A DNA stretch of 61,848 nucleotides, counting the filler. It is 10 parts of 10 records of this genome, joined end to end, with 100 filler letters (N's around TTAATTAATTAA, not from the genome) between each part and the next. Parts side by side here need not be neighbours in the genome. Positions count along the whole stretch, not along the records: positions 1 to 15,928 come from SRR7504441_3516; positions 16,029 to 22,779 come from SRR7504441_3517; positions 22,880 to 30,205 come from SRR7504441_3521; positions 30,306 to 33,514 come from SRR7504441_3526; positions 33,615 to 40,158 come from SRR7504441_3530; positions 40,259 to 43,929 come from SRR7504441_3531; positions 44,030 to 48,023 come from SRR7504441_3534; positions 48,124 to 52,822 come from SRR7504441_3547; 2 more parts are not named here. One strand, given 5' to 3'. Under the pieces are notes generated by a model. It was not told the origin of the DNA. It did not search any database and saw only the letters and a list, made by a program, of their open reading frames with translations. The position numbers and the translations under genes are program-made. Within the stretch, counting starts at the first letter, position 1. Each line of letters begins with the position of its first letter. This document shows positions 13,398 through 55,879 of the stretch, in pieces.

Positions 13398-14770
13398 ATG
13401 GGCAAGGCGAAGAAGAAACAGGCCGTGACGGAGGAGGAGGTGGAGGACAAACAGGAGGCGGTGATCGGGGTGGATGAGGTGGCCGAGATCGTGGCGGCTG
13501 GCGAGAACAGCGAGTGGGCCGCCGGGTCGGGCGGGGGGCGAGCCGGGGCAGGCTGGACCTGGCCGGGCTGGAGCAGGACATCCGGCTGATGAAGCAGGTG
13601 GCCACGGTGGACTCGGGCCACCTGGCTGTGTTCGACCCGACCCCGATCGACGAGGCCGAGTACAAGAAGGACCCGGAGCGGATGCTCAAGTCGCACGCCT
13701 CGGCCGCGGTGCAGATGCTGCTCCGCCAGCTGCAGACGCTGCCACAGGAGAAGGTAGCCGGCAGGCCGTGCCGCCGGCTGACTGGCTCGGGCAGAGCCGG
13801 CACGGGGCCATCGCCACGCTGCCCAAGCCGGAGCTGATCACCCCTCGGGAGAAGCCGGTGGGTCCGGGTGCGGCCCGGGCGAGCCGCGGGCCAGATCCCC
13901 AAGCCCAAGCCGCTGACCCGCTGGCAAAAGTTCGCGCAGGAGAAGGGAATCCGTAAGCAGAAGCGGTCCAAGATGGTGCGTGCCGCTGACTGGGCGGGGG
14001 CGAGCGGGTGTGGGCAGGAATGGGATGAGACGAGGCAGGAGTACCGGCCCCGGCACGGGTACAACCGGGTGAACGACACTAAAGAGGACTGGGTGCTGCC
14101 GCACAAGGAGGCCAAGGGCAACGACTACGACCCGTGGGAGGAGCGGGCTGAGGCCAAGAGGGATCAGAAGGAGAAGCAAAAGGCGGGCGCAGGCTGCCGG
14201 CGATGCTGAGCGTGGGGCAGATGCAAGAGAACAGGAACATGAAGGAGGCGGCTGAGGCCGGGTACAAGGCCCCGCTGCTCCAGAGCGAGATGGACGGGAG
14301 CAAGCTCCGGAAGCACGAGGTGGCCGACACACTCGCAGTGGTGCAGGCAACAGGCCAGACCTGGCCGGCTGGCCAGCGGGGCGCAGCGCTCAACGGCCTC
14401 GATGGGCAAGTTCGACAAGAAGCGGCACCACGAGCCGGAGATGAAGCTGCCCAGGGGCAAGCGGCACAAGGTCCGGTCTGCCAGTCCGCAGGCGAGCAGC
14501 CGGCAGGTGGCTCCTGCGGTCGGCACCTCGGATGAGCTAAAGTCAGAGAAGCAGCAGAAGCTGGCCGTGCTGGACAGGATGATGCGCGGCGAGGCAAGCT
14601 CGGCCTTTAACGCGGACAAGGCGGCCAATTACCAGCAAGTGGAGGACGAGAGGGCCGGCCGGACTAAGAAAGCCAAGGCGGGCGGGGACGGTAAGAAGCG
14701 GCGATCGCAGATGGGCAAGCCAGTCAACGCCAAGGGCCGCAAGATGGGCGCCCTGAAGAAGAAAGGCTAA
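13398..14770 (+). CDS. RRS1: Ribosome biogenesis regulatory protein Rrs1
   Basis: Spliced motifs DSGHLAVFD, TPREKPIPKPKPLTRWQKFAQEKGI, WDE..EYRPRHGY and STASMGKFD. Introns 13514-13551, 13754-13794, 13858-13894, 13976-14017, 14183-14220 (GC), 14347-14386 (GC) and probably 14471-14506. Confidence 0.92.
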
Positions 14771-14919
14771 GCACGCTCACGTCCACGCGAGTAATCAATC
14801 ACTCCGACGTTTCTAATGCGATTATTTTAGCAATAAATGCGTCGTCAGCTGTCATCATAACGGGCATAATAACGCCAAGGTGCCCCAGGCAGTGCGAGAG
14901 CAGGGCGCTGTCTGCCGGC

Positions 14920-15928
14920 ATGACTCGCGATCCGACACGGGCGCGCGAGGCGCTGGCGGCGGTGTTTGAGGCGCTGGACGCAAACGGGAGTGGGATGCTC
15001 GAGCTGGACGAGCTCGAGGTGTTTGGGCCGGAGGTGGAGGGCCTGCTGGCCGCCTGTGGCCAGCGGGAGCACAAGGAGCGGCTCTCGCTGGCCGAGTGGC
15101 AGCGGGGGGTGCTCGCGGCCACCAAGCTGCTCTCCGAGGCCCAGTTCAAGCGGGAGTGGCTCGACCGGCTCTGGGACGGTTTGGGGGAGGCCAAGCGACA
15201 ACGAGTCCAGGCCAAGGCAGCCTCGGCCGCCCTGGCCGAGAAGGCGCTGGCCGAGAAGGCCGAGCAGGCTGAGGCAGCCCAGCAGGCTGAGGCAGCCCAG
15301 ATGGCCGAGCAGGAAGCGCTGCGGGAGCGGCAGGAGGAGCAGCTCCGGGCCGAAGCCGAGCGGCTGCGCGACGAGGCGCAACGGGCGGTGAAAGGTGGAG
15401 GGAGAGCTTTGTCGCCGGAGGAGCGGCAGGCGCAGGCCGAGCGGCTGACCGAGCTGCTGGGCCGACTGTCGGAGGTCGGGATAGGTGTGCCTATGCTGGG
15501 TCGGTTCAACCAGTACACGCTGGCTGAGGTGTCGTCTCTGCACATCACGGACGCCCGCTGGGTGCTCCAAATGCTGCAACTGCCAGCCGACCAAGGCGAA
15601 GAGGAGCGCTGCCACTGGACTGCGCCCGGGCCTCATGCTGAGAAGCACAGCTACTTGACCAGCTCGGTTCCAGCGCACGAGCAGGCAATTCGAGCGCTGT
15701 GTGTGTACAATCAAGGCTGCTGCCTGGCCACTGCATCTGATGATGGTCGGGTCAAGTTCTGGAGCCTGGACTGCAGCGAATGCCTGGCTCGGCTGGTGCC
15801 GCTAGCCCACGGAGTGCACGAGGGGGGCGCTGTGTGGAGTCTGTGCCGACTTGGTGCCGACAAGATGGCGAGTGCAGGCGAGGATGGGCAGATTCTCATC
15901 TGGGAGCCACCCACTGAACGAGAGCCTC
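14920..15928 (+). CDS. EF-hand + Ala/Glu-rich coiled coil + WD40 repeat protein, 3' truncated by contig end
   Basis: DANGSGMLELDE EF loop; AEKALAEKAEQAEAAQQAEAAQ repeats; WD40 motifs LATASDDGRVKFW and MASAGEDGQILIWE. Confidence 0.7.
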
Positions 15929-16028
15929 NNNNNNNNNNNNNNNNNNNNNNNNNNNNNNNNNNNNNNNNNNNNTTAATTAATTAANNNNNNNNNNNNNNNN
16001 NNNNNNNNNNNNNNNNNNNNNNNNNNNN
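15929..16028. other. Artificial contig linker
   Basis: 44 N + TTAATTAATTAA (stops in all six frames) + 44 N. Confidence 0.98.
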
Positions 16029-19672: not shown

Positions 19673-22600
19673 TTAACTTTGTCCAGTTTCGATGATAGCG
19701 GCTGAGTGATACTCACCGCATGCTATGTACGACACTTTGCAATGCCGCAACGAGGCGAGACAAGTTAGCCCTTCACTTGGGTCCGGACTTGCCGCCTCCT
19801 TCCCCCTGCCCAGCTGCCCAAAGTTGTCTCGTCCCCAGGTGAACACTTCGCCCTGGCTGCTGAGCACCACATTATGCCCAGAGCCGCACGCCACTCTGAC
19901 AGGGACAACTGCCTGCGCCTTGGACCCGGCAAACTGTATCAACTCCTCGATCTGATCCGTCCCGCGCCAGAGCACCACTCGGGTGTCGTGCAGCAGCCCG
20001 ATCACGTGATATACACCGCACACAACCTGCCCCGAGCGCTCAGCCAGACCCGACCACGACGGAGACCTGCAACGCTGGGTGGCCCTCAAAGGCCGGCACC
20101 ACCACCGGGGTGGCTTCCACGCGCATCGAGGCGTCGTAGCTAGCCCCGCAGCACAACACCTGGCACTCAAGCTCGCCATCAGGCCAGTTGAGCGGAATAC
20201 CTGTCCCGCGACCGTTACGAATGCCGAGCCCTGAGGTCCGAGCGAGACAGAGCTGATCTGGAGCGCGGAGAGAGCCTCGAGTCGCCTAACTGCCGCTCAA
20301 GCCAGCAGAAGCGCGCGGCACCGGGGCTGGGCGCAGCTGACGCAGTCGCCGTGCCCGAGCTGGCCATATAGTGAGCAACCGAACGTGTAAACCTGCCCGT
20401 TGCAGACGACCGCAGTGTGCGACTCGCCGACCGCGACCATGCTGGCCTGTTTGTTGTCAAAGAATCCTAGCCGAGTCGGCTCCCACACGTACTCCTCATA
20501 CTCGTCCTTGAGCGCAAACCCGAGCTGGCCGTGGTTGCCCCGGCCCCAAGTGTACAGCACGCACTCCTCAGTAAGTACCGCTAAGTGTCGGCCGTATCCA
20601 CACGCCACCTTGCGCACCCGGCGGAGCTCCGGGATGTGCCGTGGCAGCTTCAGGCCCTCCTCGCACGTGGCCTGGTTCTCCCGGCCAAGCACGAATAGAT
20701 CGCCCATCTGGGTAACGATCGCCGTGCAGTACGCCCCGCAGCTGATGCAGCCCACCCGAGAGCCGACCATAAAGTGCTCTACCCGCTTGGGCAGATGTTG
20801 ATTCTCCTGATCTCCATGTCCCAACCGACCGTGCTTGCCGCATCCCCAAGTCCACAGCTCCTGCGCTCCCCCGATCGCCTTGGCCAGCCGCTCTTTGCTC
20901 TCTGGTACGCCGATTGCACACAGAAAACGCCGTAGCCGCCTTGTCACCCGCGGGTCTGCCCCCCGGTGAGCCCGCAGCCCCGACGATTACTCACCGTCCC
21001 ATGCAAACTGCTCCGTCGCCACAAACTCGAGCAAACGCTTAGTCCGGCCCGAGAGCAGCGAAGCGCTCGCCGTCCGGCTCATACTCAGCGGGTTGGCCCT
21101 GTTGGCGCTGCACATGGACAGTGCGAACACAGTAGGGAGAAGCTCGCGCCGTGTCTCGCGGGGAAGCCCTGGGTTCCGGACCAGCAGCCCTGCAAGCTCG
21201 GCCGCGGGCTCGGCGTGCTCCGGCCTGGTCTCGCTCAGCAGCAGCAGAAAGCCTCCCAGCAGCTTCTGGACCAGCCAGCCAGACCCGGCCAGCAGCTCGC
21301 TCTCTGGGAGCAGTCCGGCGACCTCGGCCGCGTGAGGTGGCGGATGTGGGCCTGACGGCCAGCCGGCCCCACGCACGAGCAGCTTGCTCAGTCGGACAAG
21401 CCAGTGGTCAGCAGCTGAGCCCTCAAGCGCCGGCTCCGGCTGCTGGGTCAGTCCAGCCAGCAGCACGGCGCAGCACGCCAGCTCCGGCTCCATTATGGCC
21501 GGTCCGACTGAGCGGAGCAGCCCTTTAGCCATCGCAGGCTGATCGACTGCCGCCGCAACCAGCATCAGCGCACACACCTGCAGCCAGCTCTGTACAGGCC
21601 CGACCTCGAGCGCACCGTGTGCTCGGAGCCTGGACGGGCTAGCTCCTGGAACGCGTCCACGTGATCTCCAATCTGACGCAGCAGCCGTCTCGAGAGTTCA
21701 TCCAGAGCTTGGTCCTCGGACTCGCGAGAGCAGCGCGCCGACACCGCAAGCTGACTGACCGCCCAAACTGCCTCGAGCGCTGCCCCCAGTCAGTCAGCCG
21801 GCCGGCGGGCACGCACTGTGCGCGGGTTGGTCGAGCTGGTCGAGCAGATCGAGCAGCGCTGGGAGCACATAGAGCCCGGCTGGCCCTAGCAGCCCATCTG
21901 AACAGCAGTGCGCCAGCAGCCACTCAAGAGAGCTATCGGCCGACTGCCCGAATCGGGCCAGCCGCTGGGCTATCTCGGCACAGCCCTGGCCGGTGTGGCA
22001 GCTCTCTAGTCTGTGCCACGAGACCAACTCTAAGTCCCTCAGTGAGCACCCCGGCTTGCCAAACCGGCAAGGCTCCCACGCGAGCGTTAGCTGGAGTGCC
22101 GGGTGGAGCCCCACACCCGGCTGCCGCACCGGCTGGAGCTGCACCTGCGCACGGGTCGTCGGCCAAGGTGCAGCCGGGACACACCCAGTCAGTGGACGAG
22201 CTCATCTGCTCCACAGAGCCCAGATCAAGACGAGCAGTGGCTAGCACGCCGTCCGAGCTCTGACAGAACAGCAGCAGCTCGACGCTCAAGTCCGGGTCTA
22301 ATTGACTAACCTGCGGCCAGTCAGCAGGCCGCATCTCGGCTGGCACCCGCAGATGCAGCTGGGTGGGCAAGCTGTCCGGAGCAGCCCAGCTCGCGCGCGC
22401 GGCCCACTCTCCTGCGGAGAGGAGCATCAGGAACCCCTGGTGCGCACCCGGCCACTCAAGCTGCCGAGAGGCCTTCACTGTGCACATGAGCCGGCCCCGC
22501 GCGGCCAGCTCGTACTGGCCAGCTGACGGCCTAGGAGCGCGCGGCCGGGGCTCCGTGTCGGCCGCATCAAACAGCGATGTGGCCGGGCTCAGTTCGGGGC

Positions 22601-22779: not shown

Positions 22780-22879
22780 NNNNNNNNNNNNNNNNNNNNN
22801 NNNNNNNNNNNNNNNNNNNNNNNTTAATTAATTAANNNNNNNNNNNNNNNNNNNNNNNNNNNNNNNNNNNNNNNNNNNN
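22780..22879. other. Artificial contig linker
   Basis: N44-TTAATTAATTAA-N44. Confidence 0.98.
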
Positions 22880-22880
22880 G

Positions 22881-23398: not shown

Positions 23399-26300
23399 AT
23401 GGCGATTTTTGGTTTCAGGCCGCCCTTGAGGCTGGCCTACTTGCTGGGAGCGCTGGCGGTGCTGCTCCTGGCCGACTCCGAGGCCACGCTAGGTGCGCCC
23501 GGCCGCCGCTCGGGCCAGCTGAGCCTTGGGCGCAGAGGCCGAAGAGCAGCCGGACGCCAAGACGGGGCCGGTGCCGAGGGATCGGCTGGATCCGCCTTTG
23601 CTCCGGGCGGCCGAGATGTCGACTCGGATGGTGGCGGCTCACCTCAAGTCGGTGGAGCGCTCCGCGGCTGGATCGGTGCACCGTCGGGGCTGGGCCGCGG
23701 AGCGGGCCGACCGGGCGGCGGGGCTCCTCGAGAGGGGAATGGAGGGCAAGCAGGCGGCCGAGCGAGCGCTGGAGGCGGCCCAAGCCGAGGTGCCCGCCGG
23801 CCGGGGGCGGGGGCTCGAGCCGGGGCCGGTAGGTGGCGCGGACGCGGGCTGAGGAGATGGAGGCCCGCACAAGGGCGGAGAGGGCGTCGACACGGCTGGA
23901 GGAGGTGCGGGCGGGCCGCCTTGGTCGGCGCGGACACGGCGGGTGCAGGTGGTGAGGTCCGAGGCTTCCGAGAGCAAGCAAGCGCTGCTCAAGGCGAAGG
24001 CGGCGGTGCAGAGGGCGGAGGGGAAAGTCAGGACCAAATCGGTTGCCACAGCCAGCTCCAAGGCGGCGGCGGGCGAGGCGCAACAGGCTGTGCACCGGAT
24101 CGCCACGGCGCTGAAGCAGATCGCGCAAGCGCGGGAGCAGGCCGAGGCTGTGCACGAGCGCACGTTGAGGGCGAGCGAGGCAGGCGACTCTTTGTTCGAG
24201 CAACTGACAGAGACTGCCGCGCAGTCCGAGCTTGCCGGCCACGAGGCGACCAAGACACGCGACGCAGTCGACAGGCTCGGACTGGCTATCCGACGGGTGG
24301 GGGCGGTGGCGGTTGTCAAGGCCTCCGAAGCGAGTGCAAAGGAAGCGCTGGCAGCTGATCACCTGAATCGCACCCAGAGCAAGAAGGCAGCCATCGAGCA
24401 GCGGCTCGACCGGATCGGCTCGCGCGATCATCAGCGCGCCGAGAGCGATCGACGGGCGGCCGAGGCGGTCCATGCGGGCTCGGCGGAGGCATCGAAGCTC
24501 GTGGAGCGTCTTGAGGAGCAGCTGAGCTCCTTTAGAGAAGAGGCAGCTGCCAAGAACGGCACACTGGAGGAGATGCGGCAACAGGAGCAGGCCAGGCGGG
24601 CCGAGCTCGAGCAGACCCGAGCACTCGCCCGGAGCGCCGCTGGGCGGGTGCAGGCCGAGACGGTGCAGATGCGAGCCGTGGCTCAGACGGTCGCTGAGCA
24701 GATCGCAACCAGCAAGGCGGCCGAGGAAGAGAGCCGGGCCAGCCGGGCTAACCTGAAGACCGCCAAGCAAGCGGCGGCCCGACTCGAGGCTGCGTACTCG
24801 CGCGCGGCTGATCAAGCGCGCTTTGTTGCCCAGACGACGGGTCGAGAGCTCCACGACGCAGAACAGGAGCAGCAGGAAGACAGCAAACGGGTGGAGGCGG
24901 CCGCGCAGCGGGTGGAGCAGAAGAAGAGCCATCTGGAATACCTCCGGGAAGGGTCAGTCCCAGCAGCCAAGGCCAAACTCGACGCTGCCAAACACGACCT
25001 GGTGAGATTGGAGGCAGGCCAACGCGAGCTGGGCGATGAGCACGCGGCCCAGAGCAAGCTTAAGGAGCAGACGGCCGCCGGGCTGGCTGAGCTGCAGGCG
25101 ATGCAGAAGGCTGGCCAGCGCAGCAGCGAGAAAATGCGTGCTGCGCTGGCCCGTGCAACCTCATGGGTGCACCAGAGCCAGAGCGCAGCGCAGGCCGTGC
25201 TTGCCAGCACCACCAAAGCGGCTCAGCGGCTGTCGGCGGCTAGCGAGGCCAGCAGCGCCGAGGAGCAGCAGCTCGGTGCTGCCAGGCAGCGTGCGGCCAA
25301 GCTGCAAGAAATGGCCCGGGTGGGTACTGGAAATCTGGAGAGGTTGGAGCTGCACAAAGAGGAGAGGGACGATCAGTATCAGCTGGCCGAGCGGCAGCTG
25401 CGGGCCGTGAGCCAGGAGCAGCTGGAGGCTGCTCAGAAGCAGGAAAAGGACCGAGCGACGGTCAATGCACTCGCTGACCAGGAAGCGCAGGCAGCGCGAG
25501 AGGCTGCGGGACTCAAGGGCGAGATGAAGGACCTCAACCAGCAGGCCGAAGGCCAGCAAGCTGCGCAGGACCGGCTCCGAACACAGCTGCAGGCTGAAGA
25601 CAAGGAGCTGTCCACAACCTCTCTACAAGTGGAACAGGCTCAGGCAGCCGAGGCCCGGCACATAAAAGATGCCAAAAAGCAAGCTGACCAGCTGGTGGCG
25701 GCGAATAGAGCGGTGGACCGGACTGAGGATGAGCACAGCCAGGCCAGAAGGGAGTGGCATCACCAGAATGTACGACGCCAAAGGCTACTCGACCAAGAAC
25801 GGACAGAGGCTGAAAGAGTGGAGCATGCGGCCGAGAAGTACAGCTCAGCTAGCCAGGCTGCCGAGGCCGCTGGCTCTGAGCAGAAGGAGGCTGATCAGAA
25901 GCTTGCTAAGAAGGCAAAAGCCAGGGCCGAGATCGAGGCAAACTACAAGCAGGCAGCAGATAAGGCAGTCGAGGCCCAGGCAGCAGCAAGGAGCGCTAAG
26001 CTCGGGCTGGAACAGGCCGAGGAGGACAAGGCGGCGGCGGATCTGAATCAGCAGCTGGAGCAAGTCAAGCTTGGGTCCGTGCAGAAGCATCTGAGCTACG
26101 CAGTCAAGACCGAACAAGCTGAGCAACACATGCAATCTACTGTTCAGCAAGCTGTGGCTAGCCTGGCAGGCAAAGCTAGGGTAGCAAGTGCAGCGGCTGA
26201 GCAGCAAGCCGATAAGCTGGCCAGCGCCCAGGCTGAGAACCGTGCGCTGCGTGTGCAAGTGATCGATGCAAGAGTCGGTGAGCTTGATAAGAAGCTGTCA

Positions 26301-40258: not shown

Positions 40259-40271
40259 GAGCGCGGCGCAG

Positions 40272-40812: not shown

Positions 40813-40970
40813 GCCGATCGTTGTCTAGACATGACCTGTTTGCCAATTCGGCTAACGTAAGCATAGCTGCATTATCAGTCATGAATTGCTCCAAATGTGT
40901 GATTCTATGACTTTCTTTATTGTGAGTGCTCTTCGCTGTAGCTAGTTAGGGCTGACTGCCCGGTTGTGCG

Positions 40971-41471: not shown

Positions 41472-41540
41472 CCGGCGCTGCAGTGTCGGTGGGTTACCAC
41501 CACCGTCGGCCGACTGCCGGTGTGTCAGTTGAGTTCCGGC

Positions 41541-44293: not shown

Positions 44294-46195
44294 ATGGAGG
44301 ATGAGAGCTGGAGCAGCGCGCCCACCCCACGGCAGGGCAGCTGGCGGGACTGGATCGAGTGCCGGGACCCGAGCACTGGTCGAACCTTCTGGCAGCACGC
44401 GACCAACCTCGAGCCGCCGCGGTGGCTGGCCCCAGAGAGCTGGCCGGCCGAGCTGCCAGCCGGCTGGGCCTCGATCCCGGATCCGCACGACGGCCGGCTG
44501 TACTACTACAACGCGTGCACCGAGCAGACCTGCTGGGATCGCCCGGAGCTCAACGCGCTGATTGCGCCGGTGGTGCCACCGCCCAGCGAGGGGGTGCTGT
44601 GCGGGCACGAGCAAGGCTGCACCGCAGCCATCCAGCTGCGCGACGGTTCACTGCTCACCGGATCGGTCGACTCGACCATCAGGCGATGGGACGACCAGAC
44701 GCTCGCGTGTCTGGGCACCTGGCAGCGCGACGCTAGCTCGCCGGGACACACAGGGGCGGTGCTCTGTCTGATCGAGCTCCAGGACGGCCGGGTGCTCTCA
44801 GGGGCGGCCGACAACGCGATCTGCTGCTGGGACCCAAAGACCGGCAAGTGCACCGCGGTGGTGACCGGGCACACGGACAGCGTCACCTGCCTGCTGCAGC
44901 TGCTCAGGCACACACCTGATGATGGCCCACACTCGCTGGCTGGAGTACTCCCGGAGATTGCATCGGGATCTGTGGACTTGTCCATACGGTGCTAGCCGTG
45001 GTGTGTCGGGGCGAGCCCCTGGACAGGTTGTGGCACCCAAGCTCGCTTCAGTGCCTTCGGGTGCTGAGGGACAGGGCGTCTACTGGGTTGCAACTTTGGG
45101 GAGAGTTTGGGCATACGGCCTCACTCTGGCAGCTGCTGCAGCTCGAGGACGGCCGGCTGTGCAGCGGCGGGTGTGACGGGAGGATTTTGGTACACCAGCT
45201 GGGCACGAGCGAGCCCGAGGGCGAGATTCAGTTCGAGATCGAGGGACGGTGCATGGCGCAGCTTGATTCTGGCAAGCTGCTTTCGTCGAGCCACTCGGGT
45301 ATCTGCCCAGGGTGCGAGGGCCAATGCGGGGCAGGGGCGCACATACTGTGGACATGGGAGCTGGCCGAGGTCGAACGGGCGCACAACGAGCATTTGGAGC
45401 TGCTTGCTAAGCAGAAGCGCCGGCCCGTGCTGGCAGATCCAAAGAAGAAGCCTGCAGCCAAAAAGAAGCCGCCGGCCAAGAAGAAGGGTGCCAAGGAGCC
45501 GCCAGCACCCAAACCCAAACCGGAGCCGGTGCCGGTACCGCCTGGCCGGGAGAATGGGCTACACGGGCACACCGGGTGGGTCTCGTCGCATGCAGAGGGT
45601 GATGTTTGGCTTCGCAGGTATGTTCGGAGCATTGTGCCGCTGAAGGATGGCCGGGTGGCCTCTGCAGGCGAGGATGGAACCATCCGATTGTGGGATATTG
45701 TTGAGGGCGATTTGGACGGCGTGCCGATGCTGGGGCACGATGGACCAGTCTGCTCACTACATGAACTTTCTGATGGCCGATTGATATCAACTGGCACGGA
45801 TAAGACGGCCAGAGTATGGCGTGTGCCTCCATGCACTAAGCGGAGGTGCGAGCTGTGGCGCACGTGCGACTGACTCGTGAGGCTACAGTTCGGTGGCCAC
45901 GCTCAGGATACGCCGACCGGCATCGGATCCGCCTGAGGACGAGGCATTGGATCCACCCGAAGACAGATCCACCCAAGGACAGGCAGCCGATCAACCCCGC
46001 AACTCAGGCGCCGCTCTTAGTGAGGAAGAAGTCGGATGCTCTACGTTCTTCTTGCGCCGGCACGCTCGGCGTGCTCTACACGGTCCTCTTTTCGGCGGTG
46101 CACAGTGCGGCGCCGGCTTTGGCGCTCATAATGGCGCTGATCGCCCACTTTCGGCTCAAGGACGTGGTGACCCAGGAGCTAGGCGTCATTATTGA
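44294..46195 (+). CDS. Tandem WW domain + WD40 repeat protein
   Basis: WIECRDPSTGRTFWQH..PPRW and LPAGWASIPDPHDGRLYYYN..TCWDRP, then about 7 GH..WD repeats and a Lys/Pro-rich insert. The last exon (via intron 45846-45888) is inferred; the alternative stop is 45873. Confidence 0.8.
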
Positions 46196-46390: not shown

Positions 46391-47956
46391 TTAGTTCGCC
46401 GACGCAGCAGCACGAGCTGCTTGATACTCTTTGCGAGCGTGGTTGGCCTTGAGCATGCAGGCGTAGCTCCAAGTGAGGTCTTTGGCAGCCATTGGCACGC
46501 CCGAGTTCCTGTCAATCTGCTCCGTCAGGTGGAAGCCGCCAGGCTCCACATGGTGCCGCAGCCGCATCAGCACGCCGTCACCGGCCCCAGCCAGTGCCTG
46601 GGCGGCACTGGTAGCGTCGAAGGTGTCCGGGAGCCCGAGCACAGGGGCCCAAATGGCGTAAGCCTCTGGGTGCATCGCTTGGGTCGAAACCAGCTCGGAC
46701 GCACCGCGGTAGAGCAGCTGAGCCAGAGCGGCAGTGAGCAGGATCCAAGGGTTCCCCCCGGCGTAGTTGTCTCCCTCGTAGCGCCCGTAAAGGATCCCGG
46801 GCACGCCTGCTTTGGTGTCGGCCTGGTTGATGGCAAAGCTGTTGCAGAAGAGCTCGTTCAGTGTGGCCACAGTGCCGGCGACCTCCTTTGAAGTCGGCCC
46901 GAACAGCCCATCACCCAGGTAGCCATCGTTGAACGCAGTGATCACAGCGGCGTCCTTCTTCCGGCTCTGATCCTCGATCACGAAGCCGGACTCGTAATGC
47001 GCCCCGAGCGTGGCCTCAGCCGCCTTGGCTGCAGTGCCATACTTGCCGGCACGCGACGCGTCGGACTGCTTGGCAGCGAACGCGGCGCCTCTGGTGAGTG
47101 CGGCTCGGGCGGTGAACTTGTTCCAGAACAAATCGCTCGACCGAATTTCCTCCCAGAGGTCACACCCGTTGGATGACCAGTTCTCGGCCACCCAGTCCAA
47201 ATCAGTCTGGATCAGCCCCCAGAGCTCATCGTTGCCGGCAGCGCTCGCGTTCACAGTCGTCTTGGCGTCCGCCCATGCCATTAGCGTCAGGGCTCGCAGC
47301 GCCGGACCGTCGTTCTGGGGTCGGCACCAGCCTCCGGTGAAGACTGAGCCGTTCGGGATCATGTACTTGGGCTCAGCCAGCACCGATGGGAGCCCATTGG
47401 GGTCCTGGTCCTTCTGCACCTTGCTCACCCAACCGGCATACGAGTCCATCTTGTCTGCCACCTCAGCCGGGCTGTCCGCGGTCTGGAGGAGCGCATTCAT
47501 GCTGAGGGCGCCGTCACGCTCCCAGTGGAAGTAGTAGGAGCCGCCGGGGGTGTTGTGGTCCGGGGCGGCCACGACGGCGCCCGATCCTTGGATGTCGAGG
47601 TTGGCCAGGAAGAACTTGCGCATGGCGGCCACCTCGGACTCGGTGAACGGCGGCCCCTTGGAGGCGTAGCTCAGCGGGCAGGATGCGTTCGAGGGCGGGC
47701 TCGGCGGGGTGGGCGGCGAGGGTGGCGAGGGAGGGGTGGGTGGTCCTGGCGGGCCGCTCTTGTGGTAGCACCAAGGGATGTCCTGCGGGAGGTCGGCAGC
47801 GGCTGGTCTCCAGCAGCAGCCCGAGGCCTCGCATTGTTGCTGGTTGGTGCCCAGATGGCCGCAGTCCACGCGGCTGCTCACGTCGCACTGGTCGAATGGA
47901 TAGCCGTAGACAACCGGCCCGAGAGCGAGGACAAGCGCAGAGAGGCGGGGCAGCAT
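46391..47956 (-). CDS. Secreted glucoamylase (GH15) with N-terminal trefoil (P-type) domain and Pro-rich linker
   Basis: Signal peptide; trefoil CDVSSRVDCG..CEASGCCW..PWCY; GH15 motifs YYFHWERDGAL, WCRPQNDGPALRA, DLWEE, GRYEGDNYAGGNPW, EQIDR and LTWSYA. Intronless. Confidence 0.92.
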   Translation of the reverse strand: MLPRLSALVLALGPVVYGYPFDQCDVSSRVDCGHLGTNQQQCEASGCCWRPAAADLPQDIPWCYHKSGPPGPPTPPSPPSPPTPPSPPSNASCPLSYASKGPPFTESEVAAMRKFFLANLDIQGSGAVVAAPDHNTPGGSYYFHWERDGALSMNALLQTADSPAEVADKMDSYAGWVSKVQKDQDPNGLPSVLAEPKYMIPNGSVFTGGWCRPQNDGPALRALTLMAWADAKTTVNASAAGNDELWGLIQTDLDWVAENWSSNGCDLWEEIRSSDLFWNKFTARAALTRGAAFAAKQSDASRAGKYGTAAKAAEATLGAHYESGFVIEDQSRKKDAAVITAFNDGYLGDGLFGPTSKEVAGTVATLNELFCNSFAINQADTKAGVPGILYGRYEGDNYAGGNPWILLTAALAQLLYRGASELVSTQAMHPEAYAIWAPVLGLPDTFDATSAAQALAGAGDGVLMRLRHHVEPGGFHLTEQIDRNSGVPMAAKDLTWSYACMLKANHARKEYQAARAAASAN

Positions 47957-48592: not shown

Positions 48593-51500
48593 TCAGCGAT
48601 TCGCTTTGCTCGGGTTTGACTTGTAGTACTTGCACGACGAGCCGTGCATGCACCTTATGCCTCGGCAATCCACACACGTAAACGTAGTCTTCACAGGATC
48701 GGGAGCTTCCTCAAAATGGTTTGTGAGGCATCGACTACAGTTGAGCCTGACAGTCACCTTGTCTGGTTGCCGTTTACTGTGGCTGCCTTGCATGTTGCAC
48801 TGCTCATTGGTGCAAACATAGAATTTGCGGCCAGGCGTCGACAGGCAAGACTGCTTACAATGATTGCACGATGCAGCAATCGGTCGCCCGGAGGTGGTAA
48901 TCTTCCTGACCACCCTGGTCTCTGAGCCAAGCGTTAGCCAGTCTTTCCCCTCGAGCAAACTGACATTGCAGCCATAACAGTTCCAGATGTTGGCAGCCGC
49001 TGCCTTCCTAGTGGCCTGCAATACCACCACACCAAAGTGTTTGTTGATGCAGTCATGGCAAAATACGCGCGGGCAACAGCAACACGTACAGAGCTTGGAT
49101 TCTGCCTTGGTGGCGCCACACCAGCTACACAGCAGACTATTCCGCAGGCCCTCCTGCGGCAACGGCTGCACCACACCAATGCAGTCTGAGCAAACTGGTA
49201 TTGCCAAAGCTCCATGTGAGACCACCGGGTGTCGTAAAACCTCTTGCACCGGCAAGGATGTCACCCCACACACAGTACATTGGCAATGGAGAGCCCGGCC
49301 TGCCACAACAGAATGCTCAGCGCTAGGGCTGCAGGCCTGGTGCACCAGAGTTGCTGCGAACACGGCCCGTGCCGGCTTTGTTTAGTGCGGCAAGCGCGGT
49401 GCAATCCATCAAAGAATTCAGCCTTTCCTTGCGAGAGAAGCCATTGCGATCCATAAATTGCTCGAGTGCCATTGTAGATTCCCAGAAGAGCAGCCGGCGG
49501 CACTCATACGGTGGCTTACACTTGCACATCTGAGAAGCATGCGCCAAGCACGATACCACTTGGCAGTGAGTACATGTCGAGACCACCCCGGAGAAAAAGC
49601 ATGGTTGCTGGCAATCATAGCATAGAGAATTGCGCAGCTCAAGATCAGACAGGTACTTAGAGTTGCAGGCACGAACCGCAGCAGATTTTCGCTGGGCAGG
49701 GTGGTGTGGAGGTGATTCTTCAACGTGGTAGATCTGGGACTCAGGGATCTCTCTATAACTGATCCTCTGCACAGACCTTCTACTCTTCCTGAGGAACTCA
49801 CCCTCTGGTTGATAGCCATCCTCCAGCAGGGCCGGCAGCTCTCGCTTAGCAGCCCGTGACTTCGAGCCTTGACCGGGCTGACGCTGCTTGGGAGCAGACT
49901 TCTTCGCATTCTTGAGTGCAGGGTAAAGAGCCTTCCGGCACTTGGCGCATGAGCCTTCACAGGTGAACTTAGAGCAGGGGGGACATTTTGGGCCCTGATG
50001 CTCAGGGAAGCACCCAGAACACCACCGTCTGGGGCAGCTGGCGTCCTCACAGGCACGGTATGTCCGTTTTGGGCACGACTTCTCCGACTGAGTGCAGTGG
50101 AAGCAGCTCTTGCTCTTGAGCACAGGAGAGACTGGCCGTACTTCATGCCTATCCTCCTGTTGCGACCCAAGAGCAGAGTCTCGCAGCTGGGTCTCCAGCA
50201 GCATTGGGCATACTTGCTCAGCCTCTAGGTCTTCCTTTTCGTTGCTCAGGTACTCCACATGCCACCTGGCTGGTTCTGATCCAGACTGAGCAAGCCACCG
50301 TGTGATGACTCCAGTGACTACAGTTGCATCAGACGACTTCTCCACAGCAGCACCGATCCAAGGATGGCCTTCTGTCATCCAATTGCTGGAGGGCTGTGGC
50401 TCTGTCTTGACCTGTGCACAAACTGTTGTCTCATCTACTAAGATGGCTGCTTTGGGTTCGTCATCAGCCCTTTTTGTAGCAACATTTTCTTCAGCCTTCT
50501 TCCAAGCAGCTTGCTCCTCAGCCTTTCTGGTTGCACACTCATCGGCCGCTTTCCTCCCAGACTCCTTTTCAGCCGCTTCCAGCTCTGCTTGCTGATTGTT
50601 GCCTGCGCTGTTTGCAAATTTCCATGCGTCTGCCAAATCCAACTGTTTAGAATCAATATTACTAGATCCAGCTGGACTGACATGGTCCTGCTTCACCCTG
50701 TCAGACATGTGCGTGGCCAGAGCAGAACCTTTGCCACCATTTGACACAGATTAGCCGGCTTGGCTGCATCGTCTTCTGTGGGTGCTGCTGAATCATTCAA
50801 TTCCCATGCAGTGTTACCCAAGGCCTGCAAGGCGTCGAGCGAGCAGTCCACCTGGACCACCTGCAATCCCCCTCCATCCTCCCGGAGCATACCAGAAAGT
50901 ACCTGAGCAACGTCCCTCATTTGCTGCCTCTCAAACAACTCCCGAGCCACGTGCTTTGCCAGCACGGCCTTCACTCCCCTCACCTCCTGCTACCACATCT
51001 CAGGGGTGAAAATCAGCTACATGCCTCCGAGTCCACGCCTTTCTCCTCAGTCCTGAGCACAAACGTCCATAGTAACTCGTCCATTCCCACGTAGGTAGCC
51101 CGCCGTCGCCGCCTATCACATCGATACCTGTCCACTGCCAGTCAGATTGAGCGCATGGTCGAATCATGACCTCTCTTGGGCAGCCGACCCGAAGCTAGCC
51201 CAATTCAAAGGCGCAAAATTGGTCGCCTCGCCAAAATTGAATCCGTGAGAGAATCTGAGCACCTAGACTCACCAGGAGACCAGTTGGGCTGTCACCCGCC
51301 ATGGTACGCTCTAGGAAATGTGATCACGTGCTGCCCGGCATGCTGGACCGCTCTGAAGATGGGCACCCCAGCCCGGCGGAGCAGCTGTGGATGGATCATG
51401 GTGCACTTGCGCAGCCGCAGATCTGGGTGTCTATACACGATGCTAGAAAACTGTTGTGAATTCTGCCCCAAGCCAGGTAAACTCAGTCTGTTGCCCTGTG

Positions 51501-52714
51501 GACAGGTGCACGCACATGGAAGATTCCATCGTACCGTTCTGCAGCCACATGGGGCACTGCAAACCAAGTCTTTGGAGCACCACCAAGCATGAAGTTAATT
51601 GAGTACAAGTCATTATCCTCTGTATGCCACGAGAAGAACGCGTATAACATACCAAAGTACCTACCCAGTGCAGCTCACACCGCGCCGGCAGGTGGCACGG
51701 TACATGAACGGGGTGGTGATGCCCGGCATCTCCGCAGTGTCTTCCTCAAAGAAACTGCCCTTCAGCTTTGCAATATTGCCTGCAAGTGCTCAGACGCTCC
51801 CAGTCAACATTGCACACCAGGTGTCCACGGTGATCGGTCGCCTGTTAGGCAGGAGCCATCCACGTCGTTACCATACCGGACATAACGGTCCCCATCTGCC
51901 AGTGCTGCAAAGAATTTATCCTCAAGGTCCAAATATCCTAGTGACTTCTGCTGCTGCTCGTCGCCCAGCTCTGCCTGGGCAAAAGCGTCAGCAAGCCACT
52001 CATATTCGGCTCGTGTTGTGCACTCGTGCGATACTTCAAATCCTGGATCCCCCTCCTTGCGCTGAGTGGGTGCTACCCTAAGCAGCTTTGTAGGGAACTC
52101 TGTTGGTCCCACACTCGCTGCAAACTCTGCACCTGCACAGAACAGTCGTCAGTCTTTTGGCAAGCGGTCTGTCGACGCTGCGGCACGGGTGGGGGCAGCA
52201 CAGGTGAGGCACCTGCAGGTGGGTTGATCAGTGCGACTCCGTAGCGTGAAGCCTCATCATAGATCTCTGCAATATAGCTCGCAGGGTCAGCGTACTGCTC
52301 GAGGCTCGGAAAGTACTCCAGCACCGGCGGAATATTCCGGTCTGACCAGTTCAGGTCGTCCTGGAACTTGTCCGGATCGTGCCCTTGCCCCTGTATCTGC
52401 TGCTGCCGGCCTCGGTGTGCCTCGAACCGCGGCAAGTGGCTTCGCAGATCCGGCCGCTGCTCGATGGTGATCCACGAGTCGTATTCCAGGCTAAACCCTT
52501 CCCAGCGTACCAGGTACTCGCTCCCTTGGCTGGTCTCCCGCGCTGTGACGATTTTGCAGATCGGGGTCTCAGTCTCGTTGGGGCGCACCACCCGAGGCTG
52601 CCTCCCCTCCTTGCCCGGTGAGCCTGGATGCGCCCGCTTGGTCTGTCTGTTGCCCCCCGGTGTAGACCTGCGCTTGGGCCGTTTTAGCTGCTGCCCTGAC
52701 TCTGAATGGCTCAT
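48593..52714 (-). CDS. KDM5-like JmjN/JmjC demethylase with chromo, Tudor-like, C5HC2, ADD and 4CXXC-like zinc-finger domains
   Basis: Chromo [16 protein letters not shown]; Jmj[21 protein letters not shown]; Jmj[52 protein letters not shown]5HC2 [25 protein letters not shown]-like [29 protein letters not shown]. Frames are joined by introns including 50688-50728 and 49300-49336. Confidence 0.85.
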
Positions 52715-52822
52715 GCTGCCGCTTGCACCATCCCCACACACCAGGACAGCTGTACACCGGTACCGTATAGCCGTATCTTAAAAGCGTACAATCATGTACG
52801 GGTACTCTTAGCCGGCCCCGGG

Positions 52823-52922: not shown

Positions 52923-53090
52923 GATCGCCTCGACGGCCTCCTGGCCTCGATCCGGAATACCGCTTCAAGTCCCACGGCTTACATGTACAGTGAGTGACCC
53001 ACTCGCCACACCTTCCTTCCGTTGTCCAGAGTGAGCAACGTTAACGTTTTCTTCGCGGTTGGTCTCAGCCGATCATTTCAACAAGATTCC

Positions 53091-54208
53091 ATGCTCCGTC
53101 CGCTCGTCCTCGCCCTCGCCCTCGCTGTCGCGGCTGACGGACACGGATCACTGGTCACGCCAGCACCGCGTAACTCCGTGGACCGCAGCCTGCCAGAGTG
53201 GGCCGGCGGCCAATTCACCCCAACCGGGACTATCGACCCCTTCGGCTGCGTGTGCACCAACGGGAGCGGCCCTTGCCTATCGGCCCAGTCGTGCTTCTGG
53301 TTCTCCAATGGCTGCACGATCGGCTGCCCAAACTGCACAGGTGATGGGCGGCGCGGCTTCAACATCGACACCTGCGGCTCGAAAATGAATGCGACGGTCA
53401 CTGACCCGTTGCATCGCACCCTGAACCGTGCGGCCGCCGCTAACACGCCGGATGACGTGTACCGTTTCAACCCGTGGCGCTCGCCTGGAGATGCACCTTC
53501 GTTCGACCCCTGCGGCATGGCAGGTGGCACGTGGAAGCCCGCGACGGCCGGCGCCGAGTACACGACGACGCAGTTTGCCAAACAAGGGGACCTCGGGTCA
53601 CAGGTATTGCGCCAGCTCAGCACAGGGATCCGATGGGAAGCAGGCTCGCTGGTTGAGGCCTCCATCTACATCAAAGCCAACCACGGCGGCGGTTGGCAAT
53701 ATAGGTTGTGCCCACTCAGCGAGGAGCTGACCGAGGAATGCTTCAAGCGTACACCACTCCCCTTTGGCTCACAGGAGCATACACTGCGCTGGGCAGATCG
53801 CGAGGTGAAGGTTCCCGCGACCCACGTTAAATCTGTCCGTGGGGATTATTGGGCAATGAACCCAATTCCTATGTGTGGGCAAGAGACAGTACACACGACC
53901 GACCCCTCCGGCAATGTCCACACCTGCCCAAATGGGGTGCCGCACAATGCGACCAACTTCCCATATCCGCAGAATACTTTTGGGACTGACAACATCACAA
54001 GCTTCACCATCGGCGACACACTGCACATCCCTGCAACGCTCGTTCCCGGAGACTATGTTTTAGGTTGGCGGTGGGATGCAGAGCAAACCACGCAGGTCTC
54101 CCAGCCTGTGATTACTGTGCTGCCAATGCTGAATAAGGGGGCTAGGTCTGGGGGGCGTGCGCGGATGTGACAATTACCAAGGCGAAGATGGCGCCGTTGG
54201 AGGGGTGA
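53091..54208 (+). CDS. Secreted lytic polysaccharide monooxygenase-like protein (AA10/AA15-related fold)
   Basis: Signal peptide ends AADG, giving mature His1 HGSLVTPAPRN. Second His in ANHGGGWQYRLCP. GDYVLGWRWDAEQTTQ|VWGACADV after intron 54096-54145. Confidence 0.85.
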
Positions 54209-54435
54209 AGAACGGATCCGGAGCGAGACAGGTTTGTGCCGGCAGTGATCATCAAATAAGCTGACAATTTATTATTGATGGTTCTAGGCTGAGACTATAG
54301 CTCAAAAGTAGTGTTTTTGACGATTTTATTAGAGCATATTAGACTCGTACTCGACCCTGTAGCGGCAAGTAAGACAAGCACCCGCCCCGCCGCATGATCA
54401 CAATGAGTCAGTCATCCACTTCCAAAAGTTCCGCG

Positions 54436-55879
54436 ATGGCGGGAAATGACGCTGCTGACGACCAGCTGCTGCGGTTCGCGGTATGCCAGGTGCGGCTGGC
54501 GGTGGGGCGGTGGGGCGAGCTGGCCGGGCCAGTACATCCAAGCTGCTGCCGACAGCACGGAGGACGAGGACCGCAAGGAGTCACTGGAGGTAGCCGCGCA
54601 ATGCCTGCCGGAGGGGCTCGGCGTCGAGCTGGATTCCGCGCAGCACGAGCTGCCCCGGCCGCTGCTCGAGATCTTCGAGCTGGGACTCCGTGCCTGCCGG
54701 CAACAGGCCAGCGGGCACGCCACTCGGCTGGCTGCCGACCCCAAGTATCGAAAGTTCCTGTCGACGCTGACCGAGGCCGGCTTCTTCAAAGGTGTCGAGG
54801 AGGGCACGGCCGGTGGGGCTTGCATTCGCCGGTGCCTGAGTGGCTGGGGCAGCTCACGAGGCGCGGCTGCATAAAGCCCACGAGACGTACGTGGCTAAGT
54901 ACGGTCACAGCACACCGGTCGACAACAGCAGCGCCGCCGCCCCCGCGGTGCGAGTGCCCAGTGCCGCCGGGCGAGCAGGGCTTTCAGGCGGCGCAAGCTG
55001 CACCAGAGGAGGCTGCACCGACGCCCGCTGAGCCGACTGCGGAGCAGACTGAGCAGGCTGAGGCACTCAAGGCTGAGGGTCTGGCGACTGCTCACAGGCT
55101 TACGCTTGAGTCCCTCGCAGGCAACAAAGCTCTCTCCGGCAAAGAGTATGAGCAGGCCGTCGAGTTTTACACGCAGGCGCTCGCGCTGCGCCCGGGCCAC
55201 CACATCTATCTATGCAACAGGCCGGTCAACGTATTAATGGCGCTGAGATCTGGCTGAACAGGGCTGCCGCACTCTCCTACTTGGACCGGCACGAGGAGGC
55301 GGCCGAGGACGCCCAGGCGGCAATCGATCGGGACAGCAGCTACGTGAAGGCGTACAGTCGGCTCGGGTTCGCGCAGCTGCAGCTTGGCAAGCTGGAAGAG
55401 GCGGCTGAGGCGCCCAAGGCAGACGGGGCACGGGTGAAGTGAGGGGCAGGTGTACCGGCGAGGACTCGAGTTGGACAGCTCGAACCAGAGTCTGAAGCAG
55501 GGGCTTAAGGAGGCGGAGCAGAAGCTGGGCCAGCCCGGGGCGGGCGGGGCTCCGGACCTTATGCAAGGGCTGCAAGGGTTGATGCAAGACCCAGCGGCAA
55601 TGGCGGCCGCGGCAAACATGATGCAGGCAGCCGCTCGGGCAGGTGCATCTGAGGGCTGGTGTGCAGGGTCTTGGCGGCGGCGGTGGGCAAGGTGGCGGGG
55701 GTATGCCGGACCTGGGCGCGCTGCTCAATAATCCGGCGATGATGAACATGGCACAGAACATGATGCAGGACCCAGCTATGATGCAGAACATGATGAACAT
55801 GATGGGCGGGATGGGCGGGGCGCCGCAGCAACAAGACCAGGCCCAAGACGAGATCGAGGATTTGGAGGAGGTCAATTAG
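54436..55879 (+). CDS. SGTA: SGTA/Sgt2 TPR co-chaperone
   Basis: Dimerisation motif ESLEVAAQCL; three TPRs (AEALKAEGN, YLCNRAAA, YVKAYSRLG); Met/Gln-rich STI1 tail. Introns 54490-54532, 54813-54852, 54948-54987, 55079-55120, 55221-55261 (GC), 55410-55449 (GC) and 55627-55666 (GC). Confidence 0.9.

Follow-up and report, generated by a model that had tools for sequence, protein, structure and literature searches.

The window (the whole stretch of DNA analyzed, 62 kb from ten contigs) carries three conserved genes on the plus strand, encoding the ribosome biogenesis regulatory protein RRS1, the 26S proteasome ATPase RPT5, and an SGTA-like co-chaperone, together with a histone demethylase-like JmjC gene on the minus strand. 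On the evidence of its proteins, the source organism is a marine protist, a telonemid related to Telonema. Among the matches listed, no named organism comes closer than Telonema subtile for the RPT5 and RRS1 proteins. An RPT5 phylogeny (32 of the 120 listed matches), which an earlier sequence-only reading of this DNA had put forward for placing the organism, puts it with the telonemids in a clade of 15 entries (SH-aLRT 100, stem 0.44).

That reading had also proposed miniature introns with a very high share of GC donors. Introns were examined with spliced alignments in which any boundary was permitted and the length could range from 20 to 90 nt, and with restricted alignments comparing GT/GC-AG with GT-AG only, plus GG and GA controls. 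Introns whose junctions are set by homology to relatives' proteins are referred to as anchored.

Introns in RPT5, RRS1, and the SGTA-like gene

The C-terminal 142 codons of RPT5 lie at 40261-40812, the gene being truncated by the contig start. All 142 residues are identical in P0010 and P0011, environmental full-length proteins on cDNA-sized contigs of 1.35-1.45 kb, and exactly 36, 41, and 37 nt are skipped in the match. The skipped segments are a 36-nt GC-AG intron (40360-40395), a 41-nt GC-AG intron (40468-40508), both with exonic AG upstream, and a 37-nt GT-AG intron (40572-40608) recovered in boundary-free and restricted alignments. The first is missing from P0010, P0011, and three further relatives, and GC-AG is the only G?-AG among its four equivalent placements; for the second, which shifts the frame if retained, GC-AG is the sole G?-AG placement. 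Restricted scores are 680 for GT/GC-AG and 584 for GT only, with 639 and 617 in the GG and GA controls. Moreover, the last RPT5 exon matches 20 proteins (P0003-P0022) at 96-100% identity, 15 of them on cDNA-sized contigs of 1337-1545 nt encoding 424-449 aa. We infer the cDNA origin of the matching proteins from the contig size of 1.3-1.5 kb, and they may be from sister strains because the match is at the protein level only.

Removal of seven proposed or obvious segments turns RRS1 (13398-14770) into one open frame of 366 codons, with ATG at 13398 and a stop ending at 14770. The product is 71-73% identical to cDNA-like relatives with Pfam PF04939, including P0126 of Telonema subtile. Intron 1 (GT-AG, 38 nt, 13514-13551; class B) is required by the frame and appears in one of three restricted alignments (P0123); it lies within an N-terminal region too divergent for a homology anchor. 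Beyond it, boundary-free alignments skip 41, 37, 42, 38, 40, and 36 nt in all eight homologs tried. Four of these segments are GT-AG introns, i.e., intron 2 (13754-13794, 41 nt), intron 3 (13858-13894, 37 nt), intron 4 (13976-14017, 42 nt), and intron 7 (14471-14506, 36 nt), and all four also appear in the restricted alignments, intron 2 in every one of them. Introns 5 (14183-14220, 38 nt) and 6 (14347-14386, 40 nt) are GC-AG, each after exonic AG, and close cDNA-like relatives read through both junctions without a gap. Intron 5 is placed exactly in four of the eight homologs and shifted by 4 nt, at equal length, in the other four; the one GT alternative to it measures 23 nt and costs 144-145 points. 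Intron 6 is GC-AG in all eight, and the GT alternative at 14341 removes two residues present in 11/11 fetched RRS1 relatives. Since the GG control scores just 8-16 points under GT/GC, the RRS1 GC junctions rest on invariant residues and not on score alone.

The SGTA-like gene (54436-55879, seven introns), with its N-terminal dimerization part, TPR, and Gln/Met-rich tail, shares 238/368 residues (65%) with P0138, whose 372 aa are encoded on a contig of 1211 nt. Boundary-free alignment to P0138 removes 43, 40, 34, 42, 41, 40, and 40 nt; the score falls from 1050 when any boundary is permitted to 1045 under GT/GC-AG and to 907 under GT-AG alone. Introns 1 (54490-54532, 43 nt), 2 (54813-54852, 40 nt), and 4 (55079-55120, 42 nt) are GT-AG in this alignment. 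Introns 5 (55221-55261, 41 nt), 6 (55410-55449, 40 nt), and 7 (55627-55666, 40 nt) start with GC after exonic AG; for each, alignment to P0138 leaves GC-AG as the sole G?-AG placement, and the junction is read straight across in close cDNA-like relatives. The intron 5 junction falls inside a conserved TPR helix and its GT-only alternative is 23 nt long, while intron 6 is found with both P0138 and P0140. Intron 7 is less firm because it sits in a Gly/Met-rich low-complexity tail, where a 49-nt GT-AG alternative (55643-55691) likewise restores the frame. Intron 3 (54948-54987), in a low-complexity Ala/Pro linker, is ambiguous, as 34 nt (54954-54987), the length obtained in the restricted alignment, and 31 nt (54948-54978) are both GT-AG solutions.

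Boundary-free alignments and the RRS1 frame thus reproduce the earlier count of 17 introns, seven with GC, in the three genes. The accompanying statement that all measure 36-43 nt holds for 16 of them, the ambiguous SGTA linker intron being the exception. Judged against relatives' proteins, the alignments show that the mature coding sequence lacks the segments, with junctions at precisely these positions, and that GC-AG is the sole canonical-like boundary for the seven anchored GC introns. Restricting the alignments to GT-AG loses 96-145 points across RPT5, RRS1, and SGTA.

JmjC gene, ab initio candidates, and intron census

Pfam matches (Chromo, JmjN, and zf-C5HC2) and a chain of ORFs outline a Chromo-JmjN-JmjC-C5HC2 histone demethylase-like gene at 48596-52714 (minus strand), of lower G+C and with about nine introns; the JmjC profile is split between adjacent frames, with positions 3-50 in one and 47-100 in the other. 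A 37-nt GC-AG intron after exonic AG (49300-49336; class B), also proposed by the sequence-only reading, must be removed for the ORF chain to get past a stop and switch frames, but the linker that contains it is unconserved. It has the top intron score of the gene, yet it belongs to the PWM training set. The gene model also picks a 38-nt GC-AG intron after exonic AG (50987-51024; class B); of the candidates enumerated there (intron score > -9), none offers a frame-compatible GT donor ahead of the stop. This intron is absent from the earlier list. Seven class B GT-AG introns of 38-44 nt between 50688 and 52176 are frame-compatible and join the domain pieces (52133-52176, 51780-51817, 51661-51703 with a TAG acceptor, 51463-51503, 51255-51295, 51128-51170, and 50688-50728, all minus strand); their choice leaned partly on the general JmjC consensus.

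An ab initio model in which +2 was unscored picked 25 GT, 11 GC, 1 GA, and 0 GG donors, and wrong-acceptor controls gave GC to GG+GA at about 30 to 17, a ratio from which approximately nine of the 11 GC calls are estimated to be real. Three GC-AG candidates from this source, all class C, entered the curated set. One (2840-2878, plus strand) is 39 nt long, has exonic AG before it, and belongs to a PH-domain gene; it is supported by the gene model and without a homology anchor. The other two, 44 nt at 22206-22249 (minus strand) and 38 nt at 23911-23948 (plus strand), are doubtful and may be false, as neither has AG before the donor.

The census of the 62 kb comprises 39 curated introns, from which SGTA intron 3 was excluded; 14 of the 39 come solely from the ab initio model, in which our own prior limited the length. 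The curated introns span 36-44 nt (39.7 ± 2.3 nt), and the 15 anchored ones span 36-43 nt although 20-90 nt was permitted, so the introns are real and miniature as proposed. Borders are G[T/C]...AG in 39/39 and the acceptor is CAG in 38/39. GC donors are very frequent, as the earlier reading had held, with a GC start in 7/15 anchored and 12/39 curated introns (31%, CI 17-48%). If GC-AG made up 1% of introns, at least seven GC among the 15 would have p = 6e-11; at 5%, p = 3.5e-6. The genome-wide share is uncertain because it is 47% (7/15) in the three genes that the earlier reading had chosen and 21-22% in the other classes (JmjC gene 2/9, ab initio 3/14). Contigs with GC donors number five to seven of ten, five if only those preceded by exonic AG are counted. 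In the curated set, introns have the highest G+C (0.685), followed by exons (0.64) and 3′ flanks (0.45-0.54).

Splice-site context and interpretation

All eight GC..AG segments proposed from the sequence are present at the coordinates given for them; they are 36-41 nt long, end in CAG, and have exonic AG upstream. Among well-supported introns, exonic AG precedes the donor in 9/9 GC vs 6/16 GT introns (Fisher p = 0.0028), in line with the earlier claim that every GC donor follows AG. The companion claim that +3 to +6 are unconstrained is close, but G at +5 is enriched (15/25 introns, where G makes up 0.41 of intron sequence; p = 0.04). Across the remaining eight positions of the standard donor consensus, GC donors have 4-6 matches vs 1-6 for GT donors, and a stronger match at other donor positions is the usual compensation in GC-AG introns elsewhere. 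Upstream of the acceptor, the CAG is preceded by a G-rich tract instead of a pyrimidine tract, positions -6 to -4 being G in 12, 11, and 12 of 16 GT introns.

The G+C-rich telonemid most likely has ordinary spliceosomal introns of the U2 type, near-minimal at about 40 nt and with C at +2 in roughly three of ten. Intron length would have been squeezed to an almost constant, near-minimal value, and recognition would occur across the very short intron (intron definition). The donor may be held chiefly by exonic AG, G+1, and often G+5; because of this, +2 would be only weakly selected, and the G+C pressure behind the 69% G+C of the introns could also let it drift from T to C. Special splicing machinery would not be required. 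Alternatively, a specialized spliceosome might combine a ~40-nt length ruler and exonic AG with changed U1 and/or U6 snRNAs that accept C at +2 or base-pair with it, and with a G-tract factor replacing pyrimidine-tract recognition. We regard this as unlikely. The narrow lengths (SD 2.3 nt, and 36-43 nt for anchored introns despite the wide range permitted) would fit a ruler, but minimal introns of other lineages are typically narrow in length as well. The intronic donor consensus is weak past +1, G predominates at -6 to -4 of the acceptor with no pyrimidine tract, and the GC share is far higher than standard U1 pairing usually tolerates; however, the compensation expected with an ordinary U1 is seen in its classical form at GC donors (AG in 9/9, more consensus matches), and Emiliania and pelagophytes reach 14-56% GC-AG in reports whose available text invokes G+C content alone. 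A search for snRNA genes gave 0 Rfam matches within the window, and no splicing factor was seen either.

Another explanation is that GC-AG introns exist but are over-represented in the three conserved genes, the genome-wide share being a few percent; this would agree with the drop from 7/15 to 2/9 and 3/14, two of the latter three being doubtful. We consider it quite improbable, as the lowest class still has approximately 7-22% GC, GC donors are spread over several contigs, and the probability at a 5% rate is that given above. Artefact or misreading, through errors of assembly or amplification, coding inserts that are retained, or nearby GT donors, is very improbable. The segment at 40360-40395 is in frame and stop-free, therefore translatable in principle, and frame-keeping GT alternatives exist for 14347-14386 and 55627-55666. 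Against this, the 12 extra residues are missing from relatives, whose proteins run across every junction gap-free, five of the seven anchored GC introns would shift the frame if retained, and GT-only models, besides their cost in score, need 23-nt introns or the loss of invariant residues; errors are moreover not expected repeatedly at +2 behind AG on separate contigs. Slimmer still is the chance that the introns are non-spliceosomal or mobile, i.e., euglenozoan-type non-conventional introns held by pairing of their two ends, or an introner family that has spread recently. Mean pairwise intron similarity does exceed all 200 shuffles and end-to-end pairs are in slight excess (3.9 vs 2.9 in shuffles), but the best pairwise similarity is reached in 11/200 shuffles, no pair lies beyond the 95th percentile, the mean folding z is -0.62 (2/25 introns below -2), and the borders are uniform. 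Common splice motifs and composition account for the shared similarity.

Comparison with known systems

GC-rich algae are already known for high GC-AG use, and other lineages for tiny introns; for telonemids, a little-studied lineage, we found no description in the literature of ~40-base introns with about one-third GC donors. Tiny uniform introns occur in ciliates such as Nyctotherus, in nucleomorphs, and in Paramecium and Stentor. The window introns resemble these in their very narrow lengths near the lower limit for spliceosome assembly, which implies recognition across the intron. Introns in the tiny-intron lineages are A+T-rich and overwhelmingly GT-AG, whereas those in the window are 69% G+C, G-rich on the sense strand, with a G-tract before CAG and approximately 30% GC donors.

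GC-AG accounts for about 1% of U2-type introns in animals and plants. The general share is quoted as 0.3-2% in the available text of one study (bioRxiv 10.1101/2024.10.30.620910), and the window frequency is 15-50 times higher than that of this class. In both, C at +2 is offset by a stronger match at other donor positions, but in the window the compensation is mostly exonic and +3 to +6 stay weak.

Emiliania huxleyi introns are not known to be miniature or uniform in length. This haptophyte, rightly cited by the sequence-only reading as a precedent, has 56% GC-AG among 241 manually mapped junctions in the available part of the report, with nine GC junctions confirmed by RT-PCR, and gene predictors tuned to GT-AG mis-annotate its genome (PMC4028052). 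Like the telonemid, it is a marine protist rich in G+C, with GC donors as a major class and the AG acceptor kept; the share in the window is lower (~31%, CI 17-48%), and the exonic-AG rule for GC donors seen here was not found for Emiliania in the available text (PMC4028052). The accessible portions of both papers put high GC-donor use down to high genomic G+C, so a special spliceosome is not needed (PMC4028052; bioRxiv 10.1101/2024.10.30.620910). Among pelagophytes, Aureococcus anophagefferens and Pelagomonas calceolata have 14-17% predicted GC-AG and a lower-G+C relative has 0.32%, with average introns of 103-177 bp and few per gene, as far as that source is available (bioRxiv 10.1101/2024.10.30.620910). 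Unlike in pelagophytes, the introns in the window are 36-44 nt long, with up to seven in a 1.4-kb gene.

Protein-anchored introns with GC donors

The sequence-only reading had listed eight GC..AG segments, in RRS1 (14183-14220 and 14347-14386), RPT5 (40360-40395 and 40468-40508), SGTA (55221-55261, 55410-55449 and 55627-55666) and a JmjC gene (49300-49336), and all eight are indeed found there; they are 36-41 nt long, end with CAG and are each preceded by exonic AG. Junctions were placed with our own protein-to-DNA aligner, which accepts introns of 20-90 nt and leaves their boundaries free. With the last RPT5 exon, 20 proteins (P0003-P0022) that are 96-100% identical were recovered. Fifteen of the 20 are encoded on contigs of 1337-1545 nt specifying 424-449 residues; these contigs are cDNA-sized for the encoded protein and hence leave no space for introns. 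Two of the proteins, P0010 and P0011, are identical to the window at 142/142 residues, and in the boundary-free alignment exactly 36, 41 and 37 nt are removed. Each gap has 3-4 equivalent placements, of which the sole one with G at +1 and an AG end is GC-AG, GC-AG and GT-AG, respectively. Restricting the donor gives scores of 680 when GT or GC is allowed and 584 with GT only, while the controls allowing GT or GG and GT or GA reach 639 and 617. A metagenome scan with P0011 yielded no near-identical cDNA or genomic relative among the matches listed (at least 80 loci), all of which are ≤80% identical.

Removal of seven segments from RRS1 leaves one open frame of 366 codons. The RRS1 exon search returned four proteins of eight candidates, and further members came from their clusters. 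Six segments of 41, 37, 42, 38, 40 and 36 nt are removed in all eight RRS1 homologs aligned (71-73% identity where measured). The GC-AG intron at 14347-14386 is recovered in 8/8 homologs and the one at 14183-14220 in 4/8, the other four giving a segment of equal length shifted by 4 nt. Models confined to GT donors lose 144-145 points and need a 23-nt intron, and use of the GT donor at 14341 removes two residues that are present in 11/11 fetched relatives. The score of the GG control is only 8-16 points lower, and at 71-73% identity the nucleotide is therefore not determined by score alone.

For SGTA, the search with the TPR exon gave none of 629 candidates at E ≤ 0.001, and 11 proteins were found when the N-terminal exon was run against all representatives. 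One of these relatives, P0138, comprises 372 aa on a contig of 1211 nt. Its boundary-free alignment removes 43, 40, 34, 42, 41, 40 and 40 nt from the window; the third intron lies in a low-complexity linker, and its length is ambiguous (34 or 31 nt). Against P0138, GC-AG is the sole G?-AG placement for all three claimed SGTA segments, and the scores are 1050 with any boundary, 1045 with GT/GC-AG and 907 with GT-AG only. The intron at 55627-55666, situated in the Gly/Met-rich tail, is less firm. Another relative, P0139, together with five cluster members (ENA contigs of 0.8-2.2 kb), is homologous to window 54533-54852 and carries a 20-residue insertion that is missing from the cDNA-like P0138 and P0141. 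Judged from the sequences, this insertion looks like an intron that the window lacks, left in by a gene call that reads through introns on the relative's genomic DNA. P0139 leaves the SGTA frame at the window intron 54813-54852, and this intron position therefore seems to be common to the relatives.

For all seven anchored GC introns (two each in RPT5 and RRS1, three in SGTA), sliding the boundaries leaves GC-AG as the sole G?-AG placement, and no GT-AG alternative yields an identical product. Comparison at the protein level also indicates that the segments are precisely absent from the mature mRNA: proteins from cDNA-sized contigs cross every junction gap-free, and they are identical for RPT5 (142/142) and 65-73% identical for SGTA and RRS1.

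Intron anatomy beyond the anchored genes

The gene encoding chromo, JmjN, JmjC and C5HC2 domains (Pfam; minus strand, lower G+C) was analyzed by enumerating frame-compatible candidates, which gave seven GT-AG and two GC-AG introns, a choice that leaned partly on the JmjC consensus. The GC-AG intron at 50987-51024 (-), additional to the one at 49300-49336, stands behind AG, and no frame-compatible GT donor precedes the stop among the enumerated candidates. The Pfam profile shows the JmjC domain to be split between frames but leaves the junctions undefined at codon level. A Cys-rich region without Pfam match is specified by the C-terminal exon of this gene (48596-49381, minus strand); this region presumably resembles an ADD/PHD-like zinc finger; such a finger joined to chromo, JmjN, JmjC and C5HC2 domains would be an unusual architecture.

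A gene finder based on codon usage only was dropped, as it misplaced several known introns. The gene model that we used has splice-site weights learned from 17 introns and leaves position +2 unscored, with any base allowed. Over the window it called 25 GT, 11 GC, 1 GA and 0 GG donors, and it recovered 12/17 introns when one gene at a time was left out. Controls with a wrong first base or a wrong acceptor still called 19-29 "introns"; since the real introns have to be bridged in some way by the model, these numbers do not represent a false-discovery rate and were used only for the ratio of GC to GG plus GA. In the wrong-acceptor controls this ratio is roughly 30:17, which would make about nine of the 11 GC donors genuine.

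The curated set comprises 15 homology-anchored introns with seven GC donors (class A), 10 supported by frame and domain with two (class B), and 14 ab initio introns scoring above -4 with three, two of which are doubtful in that they are without AG context (class C). Together, 12 of 39 introns have GC donors (31%, 95% CI 17-48%). The lengths of the 39 range from 36 to 44 nt (mean 39.7, SD 2.3), class C lengths being bounded by the analyst's prior and class A lengths being free of it. CAG serves as the acceptor in 38 of the 39. In classes A and B, AG precedes the donor in 9/9 GC introns vs 6/16 GT introns (p=0.0028), and G occupies +5 in 15/25 (p=0.04). Compensating donor strength at other positions is a property of the GC introns; of the other eight donor consensus positions, four to six are matched in GC donors and one to six in GT donors. 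At the 3′ splice site, the 25 class A and B introns have a G-rich tract before the CAG (e.g., 13546-13551 and 54847-54852) and no pyrimidine tract, with G at -6, -5 and -4 in 12, 11 and 12 of the 16 GT introns, respectively. On the sense strand, G predominates in the introns (G 0.41, C 0.28, T 0.16, A 0.15), and their G+C content is 0.685 relative to 0.64 in exons and 0.45-0.54 in 3′ flanks. In 31/39 introns there is a loose branch-like motif whose A lies 9-22 nt away from the 3′ end; it was derived from the same introns and without a control.

Composition of the window and its source

The window, of 61,848 bases, is a pseudomolecule of ten contigs separated by linkers of the form N44-TTAATTAATTAA-N44, located at 15929-16028 and then at 22780, 30206, 33515, 40159, 43930, 48024, 52823 and 57087. 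Because the contigs are artificially joined, gene neighborhood across linkers carries no meaning, and more than one organism could in principle have contributed the pieces. RRS1, RPT5, SGTA and the JmjC gene are located on four separate contigs and have a common intron style, which argues for one organism. The G+C content in 4-kb steps along the window is 0.49-0.66.

Intron density is very uneven among the genes. Long coiled-coil-like genes of about 2047, 796 and 849 codons (23857-30035, plus strand; 41541-43928, plus strand; 57806-60431, minus strand) and a GH15 glucoamylase-like gene (46391-47623, minus strand) have no or hardly any introns; small housekeeping genes, by contrast, have seven introns in 1.4 kb. 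Antisense to RRS1, a 595-codon open frame extends over 12337-14124 (minus strand). Long spurious ORFs are common on both strands of this G+C-rich DNA (also at 40956-43928), which makes bacterial-style ORF calling badly misleading. Within a G+C-rich contig, a stretch of low G+C (0.49) at 3200-9610 contains two long plus-strand ORFs without introns, 4469-6118 (549 codons) and 6795-9608 (937 codons), whose codon usage is different from that of the surroundings. For neither ORF does a Pfam family score above the curated cut-off; viral_contigs contains no relative, and no atlas match exceeds 0.76. The stretch may be an insertion, foreign or mobile, or else a lineage-specific gene. A search of RNA runs with window 5929-15928 as query gave one marine metatranscriptome (word share 0.05). 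Compared with 1-15928, this run provided only three contigs, all of which match ORF 6795-9608 at 100%, with no joints and none on RRS1, and so has no bearing either way on the introns. An Rfam search of the window gave no match to any RNA family, and hence no snRNA gene, and ARAGORN found a sole tRNA gene, an 85-nt tRNA-Ala (AGC) at 45356-45440 (minus strand), which exceeds the standard tRNA length and may contain a small intron.

Telonema subtile (EukProt) is the closest named source for RPT5 (140/142) among the matches listed and for RRS1, where it is the sole named source among the relatives. An RPT5 phylogeny, which had been proposed as a means to place the organism, was built from 32 rows chosen from the 120 matches listed for this one gene. 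It did place it: the window-identical proteins and T. subtile fall in a 15-row clade with SH-aLRT 100 and a stem of 0.44, separate from haptophytes, plants, Ancoracysta, Rhabdomonas and others. Assignment of the organism to the telonemids is well supported, by one conserved gene together with the best matches.

Splicing class, mechanism and comparison with known systems

In U12-type (minor) introns, the donor continues beyond +2 as a long and rigid motif, with a branch box to match near the 3′ end. Here, +3 to +6 are variable in nine GC and 16 GT introns, none of which carries the minor-class donor, and this class was rejected. Introner-like mobile introns occur as many copies that are clearly similar to each other; the best pair among 25 introns of the window scores 0.39, a value reached by 11/200 shuffles, which speaks against such copies. 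The non-conventional introns of euglenozoans have variable borders and a stable structure joining the intron ends. These were rejected as well, given the uniform borders and a mean folding z of -0.62 with 2/25 introns below -2.

The simplest reading is that these would be ordinary introns of the major spliceosome, recognized across a near-minimal intron. Donor strength would come mainly from exonic AG, G+1 and G+5, so that G+C pressure could shift the unconstrained position +2 toward C; drift of +2 with strength residing elsewhere would explain why GC donors appear only behind AG. The sequence-only reading had raised the stronger idea of a length ruler with altered U1/U6, which is suggested most strongly by the replacement of the pyrimidine tract with G-rich sequence at the 3′ side. 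In its fullest form, which we regard as unlikely, telonemid splice recognition would be reorganized. The 5′ site would then be read almost wholly from the exon, with T or C at +2 equivalent, perhaps because the 5′ end of U1 is changed or a step independent of U1 is used. The G-tract plus CAG would substitute for the pyrimidine tract, so that the U2AF large subunit would have to be altered or replaced, and the distance of about 40 nt would itself be a necessary signal. If true, this would be a deep-branching (sister-of-SAR) case of how far major-spliceosome signals can drift.

Three drifted signals are combined in one organism, namely C at +2, G-rich sequence before the acceptor and an intron length fixed near the minimum. 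This combination offers a natural test case for the information that the major spliceosome truly needs and for whether G+C pressure alone turns GT donors into GC. Telonemia is a phylogenetically pivotal lineage almost without genomes, and a 2026 preprint describes its single-cell assemblies as the group's first genomic data. If about 30% GC donors and introns of about 40 nt hold, standard predictors, which assume GT-AG, a larger minimum intron length and a pyrimidine tract, would fragment or wrongly frame a large proportion of telonemid genes, and estimates of exon and intron content would likewise be distorted. The main value lies in the annotation of telonemid genomes and in a naturally occurring experiment on minimal signals for splicing.

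Tiny introns and frequent GC-AG use are both known separately. Our literature search, with supplementary tables (a possible home of intron statistics) outside its range, found no paper combining the two and none on telonemid introns. A word search in passages of the 2026 Telonemia preprint gave neither "splice" nor "GC-AG", and a MAST single-cell paper has no relevant passage. In Emiliania, 56% of 241 junctions are GC-AG (PMC4028052), and mis-annotation by predictors occurs there in practice. Pelagophytes (Aureococcus anophagefferens and Pelagomonas calceolata) have 14-17% predicted GC-AG introns (bioRxiv 10.1101/2024.10.30.620910). In both cases, the authors' explanation is likewise G+C pressure.
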